7,023 bases of DNA from Escherichia coli. GTDB lineage: Bacteria; Pseudomonadota; Gammaproteobacteria; Enterobacterales; Enterobacteriaceae. The notes below the pieces were generated by a model. It did no database searches. It saw nothing but the letters and a program-made list of their open reading frames with translations, and was not told where the DNA came from. Positions 2,406 to 5,704 of this stretch are shown here, piece by piece; the stretch's first letter is position 1; each line of letters begins with the position of its first letter. The DNA lies in the NCBI RefSeq assembly GCF_003334785.1, contig NZ_QOWV01000037.1; one strand, given 5' to 3'. The translations under genes were made by a program, and so were the position numbers.

Positions 2406-4802
2406 ATGATGCACGAAAAGAACATCGCCCTGCTTTGTGATGAAGCCGACCGGCTTTTGCAACTGAATATCAATCTGCTCCGGCAAATGGTTGATGAGCC
2501 GGATGTGTTATCTGACAGTAAGAACGAAAACGGGCTGCTTTTTGATAAACGGAAAGCGCTGAAAAGAATTGAGGAGCTGGAGGGCGAACAAATCAAAACC
2601 GCCCGCAGGGAGATGGTGCTGGCTGTGGTCGGCACGATGAAGGCGGGCAAATCAACCACCATCAACGCCATTGTGGGGCAGGAAATTCTGCCCAACCGTA
2701 ACCGCCCCATGACCTCGGTACCGACATTGATCCGCCACGTTCCCGGAAAAACGGAACCGGTCCTCCATCTGGAACATATTCAGCCCGTCCGCAATTTATT
2801 AATCACACTGCAGGAAAAACTCGCCACCCCAGCAGGGCAGCAAGTCGCACAGTCCCTGCAGCAAACCGGGGATACCCGCGAACTACTGGATATTCTGGCG
2901 GATGATGTCTGGCTTAAAAATGAATACCACGGAGAAGACGAAATCTTTACCGGACTGGCATCGTTAAACGATCTGGTTCGTCTTGCTGCGGCAATGGGGA
3001 CTGAATTTCCTTTTGACGAATACGCAGAAGTGCAGAAACTGCCGGTGATCGACGTGGAGTTCAGCCACCTGGTGGGGATGGATACATGCCAGGGAACACT
3101 CACACTGCTGGATACCCCCGGCCCTAATGAAGCCGGACAACTGCAGATGGAAGTGATGATGCGGGATCAACTGCAGAAAGCCTCTGCGGTGCTGGCGGTG
3201 ATGGATTACACCCAGATGAACTCGAAAGCCGATGAGGAGGTTCGTAAAGAGCTTAATGCCATTGCTGACATATCAGCCGGCCGCCTGTTTGTGCTGGTCA
3301 ATAAATTTGATGAAAAAGACCGCAATGGCGATGGGGCAGATGCCGTACGCCAGAAGGTACCGGCAATGCTGAACAGCGATGTGCTGCCCTCCTCCCGCGT
3401 TTATCCTGGCTCCTCGCGCCAGGCGTACCTAGCTAACCGTGCGCTTCATGAGTTACAAAAAAACGGCACACTTCCTGATGATGAAGCCTGGGTCGATGAT
3501 TTTGTCAGGGAAGCCTTCGGTCGCATGAAAAAAGAATACGTCTGTAAAGACAGCGAACTGGTCACCGAAGGGGCGACAGACCTGTGGGAAGGCTCACTTA
3601 TCGATCAACTGATAACGGAAGTCATACTGAGTTCACACTCCAGAGCTGCGGCACTGGCGGTTGACTCTGCCGCCGCAAAACTGATGCAGAATGCAGAAAA
3701 TGTCAGCGAATATCTGTCATTACGCCATCAGGGGCTGCAACAAAGCATTCAGTCACTGCAGGCGCATATCTCCAGCCTGCTGGCAGATATCCGGGAAATC
3801 GCGGACTGTCAGAATAAGGTGACCGGTGATGTCAGAATGGCCATGGAGGAGATCGATGCTAAAACCCGGGAATTACTGACGGAGGTCTGCGCCTCACTGG
3901 AAGAGGAGCTGAATGCCTATTTCAGAAGCGGTAAACGCAAAGAACAGCAAATGCTGGAAGAAGAAGGCGCAGAACAACGCATATCGCAGCAGGGGATTAT
4001 TGGAAAAATTCGTGAGCAGTTTAGTGTCAGTGCCCCGGGCCATCATTCATGGAAACGAGACTTTGATCCGGACAGCCCCGAGATAAAATTCAGTGATCGC
4101 AGGGAAGCCCTTAAACTGATGACGCAAATCGAATCGACCGTGACTAGCCTGCACCGTGAGGCTGAAGCACAGTTCCGGCCTGAACTGGAAAAAATCGTCA
4201 GGGGTATCGAAACAGGTTTTCGTGGTACGGCCCTGTATGCCACAGAAAATATTGCCGGACGTATCAATGCCCGCCTGGAGGACGAGGGCTTCACTGTAAA
4301 AATCACTTTCCCGGCAGTCAGCCAGTTACAGACCAGGATCGCGGTAAAAACAAATCTGAGTGCGCTTATGGAGGAAAGAACTGAGACAGTCACCCGTCGC
4401 CGTCGGCAGAGTGGTTTCTGGGGAAAGATTTGTGGAGCGTTTGGCACCAGTGACTGGGGCTGGGAAAACTATAAGGAGAATGTGAGCCGCAGTGTGATCA
4501 ATATCAACTCGGTCAGGAAGGAAGTGATGTCACTGACCCGGGCATATTTCGGGGAGTTGCAGGCATCCATTGAGCAGAATATTAACCAGCCCGTCCGCCA
4601 GGAGATCGATGATTTTTTCTGTACATTCAGGGAAAAAGTCGAACAGCTACGTAACACACTCATTCAGAGCTCTGAAGATCATAAACGCGATCAGCAGGCA
4701 CAGGAGCAGCTTACGGAGCGCCTTCAGGCATTAAATGAAAGGGTTCCCGAGCTGATTACTGACAGTAAGGCGTTAAGGGAAGAACTGGAGACACTGCTGT
4801 GA
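2406..4802 (+). CDS. Bacterial dynamin-like protein (large membrane-remodelling GTPase)
   Basis: 798-aa ORF. G1 P-loop GTMKAGKS at nt 2631-2654 (aa 76-83); G3 DTPG at nt 3111-3122 (D236); G4 NKFD at nt 3300-3311 (aa 299-302). Long helical, coiled-coil-like C-terminal region rich in E/Q/L/R, as in dynamin stalks. AAAGGTGA at 2398-2405 upstream of tandem ATGs at 2406 and 2409. Confidence 0.9.
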   Translation: MMHEKNIALLCDEADRLLQLNINLLRQMVDEPDVLSDSKNENGLLFDKRKALKRIEELEGEQIKTARREMVLAVVGTMKAGKSTTINAIVGQEILPNRNRPMTSVPTLIRHVPGKTEPVLHLEHIQPVRNLLITLQEKLATPAGQQVAQSLQQTGDTRELLDILADDVWLKNEYHGEDEIFTGLASLNDLVRLAAAMGTEFPFDEYAEVQKLPVIDVEFSHLVGMDTCQGTLTLLDTPGPNEAGQLQMEVMMRDQLQKASAVLAVMDYTQMNSKADEEVRKELNAIADISAGRLFVLVNKFDEKDRNGDGADAVRQKVPAMLNSDVLPSSRVYPGSSRQAYLANRALHELQKNGTLPDDEAWVDDFVREAFGRMKKEYVCKDSELVTEGATDLWEGSLIDQLITEVILSSHSRAAALAVDSAAAKLMQNAENVSEYLSLRHQGLQQSIQSLQAHISSLLADIREIADCQNKVTGDVRMAMEEIDAKTRELLTEVCASLEEELNAYFRSGKRKEQQMLEEEGAEQRISQQGIIGKIREQFSVSAPGHHSWKRDFDPDSPEIKFSDRREALKLMTQIESTVTSLHREAEAQFRPELEKIVRGIETGFRGTALYATENIAGRINARLEDEGFTVKITFPAVSQLQTRIAVKTNLSALMEERTETVTRRRRQSGFWGKICGAFGTSDWGWENYKENVSRSVININSVRKEVMSLTRAYFGELQASIEQNINQPVRQEIDDFFCTFREKVEQLRNTLIQSSEDHKRDQQAQEQLTERLQALNERVPELITDSKALREELETLL

Positions 4803-5704
4803 CCTCACCATTTATTCAACAAATTGCTGATAACCGGGTATGTCAGGTACTCAGTTGCCTTCCTGAAAAATTTGTGGTTGATTTTGCAAACGGTATTGAT
4901 GTTGCACAGGAGCATAACCGCACGGCCGGGGGGCGCACGTTTTTCCGGCGTTTAAAAGAAGGTCTGACTGGCAAAGGCGCTGTACGCCAGAATGCCATCA
5001 ATGCTTCGCTTGCACAGGGCGTTGAGGCGTCCCTGCGCTGGCTGACGGAGCTGACAACGTCGCTTGCCACCACAAATTACGCGATTACCCGGGTAAACGA
5101 CAGAGTCAGTTCACTGGTCAGTGATACTGCCAGGCTGGCGCATTATTCGGCAGACACGCGGGAGCAGTTACTCACCCTGGCAGAACAGGTTCATCAGAAA
5201 CTGAATCATCTTGAAGAAAAACTCCACCGTGTTGACCAGGTTCAGCGGGCACAGTTACATCTTGAGCAGATATTCTCATGGTGGAGCGCCGGGCGATACG
5301 CGTCCATTTCCCCTGCCGGACGTTGTTATGTGGCGCTTGAAGAGCTTCGCTGGGGCGCGTTTGGTGATGTGATACGTCAGGGTGAAACAGGCCAGGTTAA
5401 CCAGTTACTGGATATCCTCAGACATAAAGCATTAACGCAAATGGCACAGGAGAATGGCGGTAGCGCAACAGTACGTCTGAACACACTGGACTGGCTTGGT
5501 GGTCAGAGCCGGGAACAGGCTGATAACGAATGGCATGAAGCGGTTAACTGGCTGGGGGACTGGTGCAGTGAAGAGCGGCATCCTGTGATCTGGTCAACCA
5601 CACAGGCTGCAGAACACTTACCGGTTCGTATGCCCCGTCTCTGCTCTGCAGAACGCCTCTCTGAAAGTATGGTTGATGAAATATTTCAGAAGGGGGAGGC
5701 ATGA
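4799..5704 (+). CDS. Dynamin-associated partner protein of unknown function (possibly RdcB/YjcZ-like)
   Basis: 301-aa ORF with a GTG start at 4799 overlapping the upstream TGA stop (GTGA). GGAG at 4787-4790 lies 8 nt upstream. No catalytic motif recognised. Size and position immediately downstream of a dynamin-like GTPase resemble the chromosomal yjdA-yjcZ (rdcA-rdcB) pair of E. coli; this is an architectural analogy, not a verified homology. Confidence 0.75.
   Translation: MTSPFIQQIADNRVCQVLSCLPEKFVVDFANGIDVAQEHNRTAGGRTFFRRLKEGLTGKGAVRQNAINASLAQGVEASLRWLTELTTSLATTNYAITRVNDRVSSLVSDTARLAHYSADTREQLLTLAEQVHQKLNHLEEKLHRVDQVQRAQLHLEQIFSWWSAGRYASISPAGRCYVALEELRWGAFGDVIRQGETGQVNQLLDILRHKALTQMAQENGGSATVRLNTLDWLGGQSREQADNEWHEAVNWLGDWCSEERHPVIWSTTQAAEHLPVRMPRLCSAERLSESMVDEIFQKGEA

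Follow-up and report, generated by a model that had tools for sequence, protein, structure and literature searches.

The subject of this analysis is the middle gene of a three-gene operon in Escherichia coli. The operon lies in a window of 7,023 nucleotides (nt), which is the whole stretch of DNA analysed (RefSeq assembly GCF_003334785.1, contig NZ_QOWV01000037.1). All three genes were taken from a listing of open reading frames (ORFs), and all are on the plus strand. The first, at 2406..4802, encodes a dynamin-like GTPase of 798 amino acids (aa), recognised by its homology to RdcA/CrfC. The middle gene, at 4799..5704, begins with GTG and encodes a 301-aa protein of the YjcZ/RdcB family. The third, at 5701..6771, encodes a patatin-like phospholipase of 356 aa, recognised by its patatin motifs. 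On balance, the favoured reading is that the 301-aa protein is an adaptor, which would couple the switch of the GTPase to the phospholipase as effector, most likely in defence. The RdcA-RdcB pair of the E. coli core genome would then probably be a domesticated offshoot that has no patatin and was rewired to the diguanylate cyclase DgcE.

The three genes are packed tightly. The stop codon of the dynamin gene and the start codon of the middle gene share the letters GTGA at 4799-4802, as read from the sequence, which is an overlap of 4 nt. The stop of the middle gene and the ATG of the patatin gene likewise share ATGA at 5701-5704, again 4 nt. A GGAG is found at 4787-4790, 8 nt 5' of the GTG. An earlier note on this DNA had read the overlapping GTG start as a sign of tight coupling, and the arrangement recurs elsewhere: most of 34 homologous loci from other genera have stop/start overlaps of -4 or -1 at both junctions. 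In Methylomonas koyamae a 99-aa ORF without a family match lies between the dynamin and YjcZ genes, where it interrupts the usual overlap (L003 7617-7916 and L004 1774-2073). Upstream of 2406, a scan for sigma-70 promoters gave nothing convincing. Downstream, a consensus scan alone marks a terminator-like GC-rich hairpin followed by a T-run on the plus strand (6791..6809), beginning 20 nt past the patatin stop; this is the probable end of the operon.

Positions 2300-6900 of the window match the chromosome of enterotoxigenic E. coli TW10722 at 100% identity. In that strain the Prokaryotic Genome Annotation Pipeline (PGAP) has three coding sequences with the same boundaries as the ORFs of the window, so that the gene order and sizes given in the earlier note (798 followed by 301 aa) agree with independent annotation. 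The PGAP product names are "dynamin family protein", "diguanylate cyclase regulator RdcB family protein" and "patatin-like phospholipase family protein". The RdcB-family homology is thus already carried by the RefSeq product name, and the operon has already been remarked on in PMC12922286.

By sequence, profile and fold, the 301-aa protein is a member of the YjcZ/RdcB family, which the earlier note had offered as a possibility. Its residues 26-296 match the Pfam YjcZ model (PF13990) over its entire length (1-272 of 272; independent E-value 1e-69). BLASTP aligns it with K-12 RdcB (b4110) at 31% identity over 283 aa (E 5e-39). There are 547 homologues at E<=1e-3, and together with the full-length Pfam match these rule out a chance ORF. 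The AlphaFold2 (AF2) model, built with 93 family sequences, is all-alpha, with a predicted local distance difference test (pLDDT) of 82.8 and a predicted template modelling score (pTM) of 0.84; in the C-terminal domain pLDDT is above 90. The template modelling (TM) score against the AFDB model of E. coli YjcZ is 0.73 (E 2e-8), and it reaches 0.94 against other models of the family. A structure search of AFDB50 with this model returned YjcZ-family models and nothing from outside the family. No NCBIfam model matches the protein, and a search of PDB sequences gave coiled-coil noise only, at E 0.02 or worse. The family itself is small, with 319 clusters at 50% identity among 1.84 billion representatives.

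The 798-aa protein aligns end to end with K-12 RdcA/CrfC (YjdA), at 32% identity over 767 aa (BLASTP, E 9e-124), which bears out the homology proposed for it earlier. The NCBIfam CrfC model matches at E 7e-167 and 557 bits, where the cut-off for orthologues is 1146 bits. Going by these comparisons, it is a paralogue of RdcA/CrfC. Its GTPase motifs are intact: the P-loop GTMKAGKST with K82, T103 of G2, DTPGPNE of G3 and NKxD of G4. Among 28 dynamins from homologous three-gene loci, the residues of G1 to G4 are at least 96% invariant. Like the other two proteins of the operon it has no transmembrane segment, nor was a hydrophobic segment found in it. CrfC carries a motif that binds the beta clamp, 41-QLALP (PMC6374313). 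In the alignment this motif falls on NENGLLF of the island dynamin (residues ~34-50) and is not conserved. On these sequence grounds, the role of CrfC in chromosome partition is unlikely to apply here. One relative has a doubled dynamin: in a metagenome-assembled genome labelled Synergistaceae (L032 927-5993), a single ORF of 1688 aa lies 5' of the YjcZ gene and holds two RdcA/CrfC-like dynamin units in tandem. Its N-terminal unit matches the CrfC model at E 8e-107 as well as Pfam Dynamin_N, and the whole resembles the fused double dynamin DynA.

In K-12, RdcA and RdcB activate DgcE, and RdcB is required for the DgcE-dependent expression of CsgD and curli (PMC6510439). In two-hybrid assays RdcB binds RdcA tightly but does not itself bind DgcE, and it is the nucleotide-free or post-hydrolysis form of the GTPase that engages the target, while the GTP-locked T103D form does not (PMC6510439). 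The discoverers suggested that RdcB might be a GTPase-activating or nucleotide-release factor. The pair and the island operon have much in common. Members of the same two protein families are encoded in the same order, the stop codon of the first gene overlaps the start of the second, and the sizes are similar (742 and 292 aa in K-12). Both proteins align over their full length (32% and 31% identity), the small subunits share a fold, and the GTPase residues K82 and T103 are conserved. They differ in that the N-terminal half of the island small subunit has diverged, the island dynamin lacks the clamp-binding QLALP, a patatin gene is always appended, and the island operon is accessory and mobile where the K-12 pair is core and sits at the yjdM-proP locus.

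These likenesses raise the question whether the 301-aa protein is simply a functional RdcB. It would then regulate a diguanylate cyclase together with its dynamin, be that DgcE or another protein with a MASE1 domain, and the patatin would be an unrelated passenger. Membership of the family, an RdcA-like partner, the retention of K82 and T103 and the known activation of DgcE by RdcA/RdcB (PMC6510439) all fit. Against this, identity to RdcB drops to 18% in residues 20-150, where the conserved residues specific to the clade are replaced, and the partner dynamin stays under the CrfC orthologue cut-off. Core rdcA-rdcB is moreover present in 5405 of 5426 complete E. coli genomes (99.6%, at coverage >=80%), beside the dynamin-YjcZ-patatin trio where that occurs. 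Nor is the patatin gene ever missing from the trio clade, and its translation is coupled to that of the middle gene. This clade extends to Methylomonas, Gallionella, Allochromatium and Nostoc, far beyond the range of the rdcAB pair. Such a role is very improbable. The 301-aa protein is a diverged paralogue of RdcB and not its orthologue: its partner falls below the CrfC cut-off, core rdcAB co-occurs with it, and the two kinds of protein form separate clades. The trio loci also lack the core yjdM-proP position.

In E. coli the trio is common. It is found in 2443 of the 5426 complete genomes (45%), in up to five places per genome, and most copies are only 90-95% identical to the allele of the window. 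For a wider view, one genome per species was scanned, which gave 79 YjcZ-family loci that were scored by tblastn for the three proteins. Contig ends aside, all 79 have an RdcA/CrfC-type dynamin gene directly 5' of the YjcZ gene. They come in two types. The trio type is found in 28 species, where the middle protein is 34-95% identical to that of the window, and wherever the contig allows it dynamin, YjcZ and patatin follow each other in that order at all 28 loci. The taxa are Escherichia albertii, Pantoea, Erwinia, Budvicia, many Pseudomonas, Allochromatium, Thiodictyon, Macromonas, Aquaspirillum, Comamonadaceae, Paenacidovorax, Gallionella, strain HdN1, Yanghanlia and Pontibacterium. The pair type is found in 51 species, all of them Enterobacteriaceae; RdcA is encoded in all and patatin in none. 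Pair-type proteins have 31-36% identity to the window protein and 42-63% to K-12 RdcB. The surroundings of the pair are nearly fixed, with YjdM in 51 of 53 loci and ProP in 45 of 53; neither is found at any of 37 trio loci.

Individual look-ups of distant YjcZ loci also found the trio, in Methylomonas and Allochromatium. A Pseudomonas trio adjoins an integrase, DUF927 and a WYL gene, and one in Plesiomonas adjoins an integrase and PolB. Metagenomic members at 25-27% identity have likewise kept the full trio. The most distant case is the mobilizable plasmid pNSMS104 of Nostoc sp. MS1 (L095 4527-8952), which carries a complete trio with a YjcZ-like protein of 347 aa; its neighbours are VapC, a DUF3387 protein, a PD-(D/E)XK nuclease and an integrase. 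Over the 28 trio loci the matrices of pairwise identity of the three proteins correlate with each other (r = 0.84, 0.89 and 0.86). By these comparisons, the three genes are inherited and evolve together. One candidate for a natural fusion of dynamin and YjcZ was discarded: P0232, with 438 aa and both Dynamin_N and YjcZ (L090 783-2099), is an in-frame deletion between rdcA and rdcB at a K-12-type yjdM...proP locus.

The earlier note had suggested that, if the proteins were homologous, a housekeeping GTPase pair was co-opted to control a lipase. While its homology and coupling stand, this direction is probably wrong, and the reverse is the likelier course: rdcAB would be an offshoot of the trio that lost its lipase, and not the source of the trio. 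In a neighbour-joining tree all RdcB-type proteins fall into one clade with a long stem, and trio-type proteins are far more diverse, down to 21% pairwise identity. The midpoint root falls between the two clades; the tree was made without an outgroup and does not by itself give the polarity. What makes this direction the likelier one is the breadth of the trio (two proteobacterial classes, beta and gamma, plus a cyanobacterial plasmid) against a pair confined to the Enterobacteriaceae, the fixed synteny of that pair, and its long stem.

The 301-aa protein consists of two parts that differ in their conservation. From conservation and the model, an N-terminal helical or coiled-coil half was delimited at residues 21-150 (4859..5248, plus strand) and a compact alpha-helical C-terminal domain at residues 151-298 (5249..5692, plus strand). 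Over residues 151-298, identity between the window protein and K-12 RdcB is 41%; over residues 20-150 it is 18%. Columns were compared between 34 trio-type and 52 pair-type sequences. In residues 151-298 there are 25 columns where both clades conserve the same residue, including GRCY..LEELRWG.FG, DW and P..R; in the window protein this domain carries GRCYVALEELRWGAFGD, DW and MPRLCSAERL. Conversely, residues 20-150 have 35 columns in which either the trio clade alone is conserved or each clade keeps a residue of its own, where the C-terminal half has 3. The N-terminal half carries LPEKFVVDFANGIDV...DH.R, which is conserved in the members linked to a patatin and has diverged in RdcB. The Nostoc trio member can be aligned to the N-terminal half only, at 27% identity over residues 18-217 with the motif K..VD..NGI.V...R.

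From this split, and from the binding of RdcA by RdcB in the paralogous system, we infer that the C-terminal domain is the module that binds the dynamin. By the same reasoning the N-terminal coiled-coil half would face the patatin, or serve regulation.

One locus comes close to a natural experiment on this point. At L089 7001-9630 (ENA ERZ19489111 contig_1), a single protein of 532 aa joins a full-length JukA to a YjcZ domain. The JukA part matches PADLOC model PDLC04113 (E 1.6e-74) and has DUF3944 and Cbp3-like matches as well as a hydrophobic stretch at ~165-235. An overlapping patatin gene follows; upstream lie parE/parC and no dynamin. The link between YjcZ and patatin has thus outlasted an exchange of the upstream module, which supports, at the level of gene architecture, a direct connection between the two.

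The patatin itself looks like a working enzyme. Its motifs are intact, with the oxyanion GGGxxG at residues 13-18, the nucleophile Ser42 in GASIG and Asp223 in DGG, and it has a long C-terminal helix. Among PDB sequences it matches PlpD (E 1e-11), VipD and ExoU; in NCBIfam the matches are weak, to RssA and to CBASS lipases (CBASS being the cyclic-oligonucleotide-based anti-phage signalling system). Pfam Patatin is recorded on the neighbour genes of related trio loci. In 26 paired homologues the GGG, GxSxG and DG motifs with their catalytic Ser and Asp are invariant. Together with the conserved GTPase motifs, this pattern indicates that both patatin and dynamin are under selection for activity.

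The operon is clearly mobile, as had been proposed for it. In TW10722 it lies within an integrative island, with genes for a YeeP-like GTPase and an Ag43/Cah adhesin upstream and antirestriction, RadC/JAB and CbtA/CbeA genes downstream. A tblastn search placed the middle protein on 46 plasmids as well, from hosts in Escherichia, Klebsiella, Enterobacter, Citrobacter and Nostoc, and many of these plasmids are conjugative or mobilizable. A plasmid allele that is 62.8% identical to the window protein is shared in identical form by several genera, and in pAW1.7_2, a plasmid of E. coli, the insertion sequences (IS) IS5 and IS30 flank the three genes. A phage origin of the middle gene was considered and rejected, since 50,697 phage genome records contain no copy of it.

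Mobility of this kind is also what an addiction cassette would display. The trio would then stabilise its island or plasmid in the manner of a toxin-antitoxin pair, with the patatin as putative toxin and the YjcZ-like protein and GTPase as its neutraliser. The carriage on plasmids and integrative islands with flanking IS elements, the CbtA/CbeA and VapC toxin-antitoxin genes nearby, the intact active site of the lipase and the tight translational coupling are all compatible with this. A GTPase of ~800 aa with invariant G motifs would, however, be an unusually elaborate antitoxin, and the idea overlaps with abortive-infection defence rather than excluding it. It is considered quite unlikely.

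The neighbourhood of the trio in other genomes is one basis for preferring a role in defence. Genes for WYL regulators flank the trio at nine distinct loci and none of 51 pair loci. They are L031 (2591-3523), L026 (2374-3246, minus strand), L028 (769-1644, minus strand), L005 (376-1272), L011, L014, L018, L029 and L019. The WYL gene of Gallionella lies just 5' of the trio and reads the same way; those of P. putida and P. juntendi are divergent. WYL regulators of this kind control BREX (bacteriophage exclusion) and CBASS systems. Other neighbours of the trio include a type I restriction-modification methyltransferase, a DrmD-like SNF2 helicase, integrases, IS elements, a group II intron, VapC and other toxin-antitoxin genes, and a PD-(D/E)XK nuclease. 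At three loci, in Erwinia, Pantoea and a Pseudomonas, a JukA gene lies directly 3' of the trio on the same strand (L034 8004-9784, L010 8016-8840, L019 7993-8730). The JukA of Erwinia sp. S63 is accompanied by a full-length JukB (E 4e-112), and that of Pantoea conspicua is broken into two ORFs.

Expression data bear on this too. In E. coli MP1, homologous operons rank with the most strongly induced genes of a lysogen, according to a transcriptome study from 2026 (PMC12922286). Its authors noted EcoKI and Druantia nearby, put the identity to RdcAB at ~30%, and proposed that this is a putative dynamin defence system. From the genomic context, the trio is most likely a module of the defence type, directed against phages or other mobile elements.

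It is useful to compare the trio with known systems. In Juk (jumbo-phage killer) systems, the experimentally characterised sensor JukA (YaaW) goes to the site of jumbo-phage ejection and recruits variable effectors; JukA fused with a patatin, a Ras-like GTPase or an unknown coiled-coil domain (UD1) has been described (bioRxiv 10.1101/2022.09.17.508391). The JukA-YjcZ fusion of L089 may be this UD1 fusion. The trio resembles Juk in being modular, with a recruiter or sensor and an interchangeable effector, in the fusion of JukA and YjcZ that precedes a patatin, and in the JukA or JukAB found 3' of it at the three loci above. It differs in its upstream module, which is a dynamin-like GTPase. None of the three window proteins has a PADLOC match to JukA or JukB; JukA was seen only at the related loci L010, L019, L034 and L089.

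With CBASS the trio shares an effector like CapV: a patatin fold with a Ser-Asp dyad, encoded by the last gene of the cassette and presumed to hydrolyse phospholipids. Yet the window holds no cyclase ORF and no gene for nucleotide signalling, and the patatin matches the lipase models weakly (E 5e-4 to 6.5e-3), at N-terminal motifs within residues 9-46. Its activation would come from a protein partner and not from a cyclic nucleotide.

Eleos (LeoA/LeoBC) and DynA of B. subtilis are likewise built around a large dynamin-family GTPase, and a mobile island is a further point in common; the double dynamin of L032 is like DynA in particular. The island GTPase is however of the RdcA/CrfC subtype. In PADLOC the LeoBC match is confined to the P-loop (dynamin residues 55-90, E 4.7e-4), and LeoA gave no match. 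The YjcZ and patatin partners, obligatory here, are absent from both systems.

This comparison bears on another possible role for the trio, in membrane stress, repair or vesiculation. The dynamin would remodel the inner membrane, as DynA and LeoABC do, with the patatin providing local lipid turnover; in pathogens this could aid the release of vesicles or toxin, or the display of adhesins. References given in PMC12922286 tie bacterial dynamins to membrane repair and vesicle release. The island copy in enterotoxigenic E. coli does adjoin the Ag43/Cah adhesin gene, and three proteins without transmembrane segments suit peripheral action. But dynamins of the RdcA/CrfC type have no membrane-binding paddle (PMC6374313), the similarity to LeoBC is weak and limited to the P-loop, and the trio is common in free-living non-pathogens. 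The links with WYL, JukAB, restriction-modification and integrases, along with the JukA-YjcZ fusion, point to conflict systems instead. A membrane module of this sort is unlikely, if somewhat less so than an addiction cassette.

Several observations weigh against an adaptor in a defence system, and against the evolutionary history proposed with it. In the window the operon sits behind the Ag43/Cah adhesin gene, and no WYL, Juk or restriction-modification gene adjoins it there. Many trio neighbours elsewhere are unannotated or metabolic, such as FecIR/TonB in Methylomonas and TauD in Plesiomonas. PADLOC v2 does not recognise the trio as a defence system: it gives weak matches of the dynamin and patatin at the P-loop and GGG motif only, and none for the middle protein. 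The literature searched (dynamin with patatin, PF13990, YjcZ-like, anti-phage) contained no functional study of the trio. An AF2 model of a YjcZ-(G4S)6-patatin fusion, made with 26 paired sequences, has a pTM of 0.57, which speaks neither for nor against a complex. In the fusion the N-terminal half has a higher pLDDT, with long helices there and in the C-terminus of the patatin; this is suggestive, but the composition of the alignment may also explain it. Finally, the polarity of the pair and the trio rests on phyletic breadth and a long stem in an unrooted tree.

The mechanism that would follow from the adaptor reading can be outlined. The C-terminal domain of the 301-aa protein would bind the dynamin as RdcB binds RdcA, and the N-terminal coiled-coil half would hold or recruit the patatin. 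By analogy with RdcAB, the nucleotide or oligomeric state of the GTPase would be the switch, which through the YjcZ-like adaptor would hold the patatin in check until it is triggered. The trigger might be GTP depletion, a phage protein, or a membrane perturbation or membrane-derived cue. Once released or positioned, the patatin would cleave membrane phospholipids. With no transmembrane segment in any of the three proteins, action on the membrane would be peripheral. The infected cell may then stop growing or die, or the membrane may be remodelled locally.

The remainder of the window contains some further features of the island. The YeeP-like GTPase gene is intact here (16-927, 303 aa), and the copy in TW10722 is interrupted by IS100 in an otherwise identical island. 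The Ag43/Cah autotransporter gene (1224-2298) has an internal deletion that leaves an N-terminal ORF of 289 aa (1224-2093) and a C-terminal piece of 79 aa (2059-2298); cah of TW10722 is intact at 2850 nt. This deleted arrangement has no exact match among the complete genomes of the collection, and a collapse of repeats during assembly is a possible alternative cause.

At its plainest, the trio is a variant of the RdcAB theme with a lipase as output and with suggestive associations to defence. A bolder proposal goes further and is tentative: the trio would be a widespread immune system that has so far not been catalogued, in which the YjcZ fold hands a patatin to interchangeable sensors, either an RdcA-type dynamin or JukA. 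Core RdcA/RdcB would be its domesticated remnant, which lost the lipase and was rewired to the control of cyclic di-GMP and biofilm.

For the family, the findings mean that RdcB-like proteins are mostly tied to a patatin lipase, and that the C-terminal half alone is shared between the two types. This leads to a hypothesis of two interfaces and points to the half that probably binds the dynamin. Should the trio prove to be a defence system, it would be among the commonest uncatalogued ones in E. coli. If the bolder proposal is true, bacterial dynamins, Juk sensors and phospholipase effectors would be joined in one modular scheme, and a housekeeping pathway, from RdcAB by way of DgcE to curli, would have descended from a mobile conflict system.

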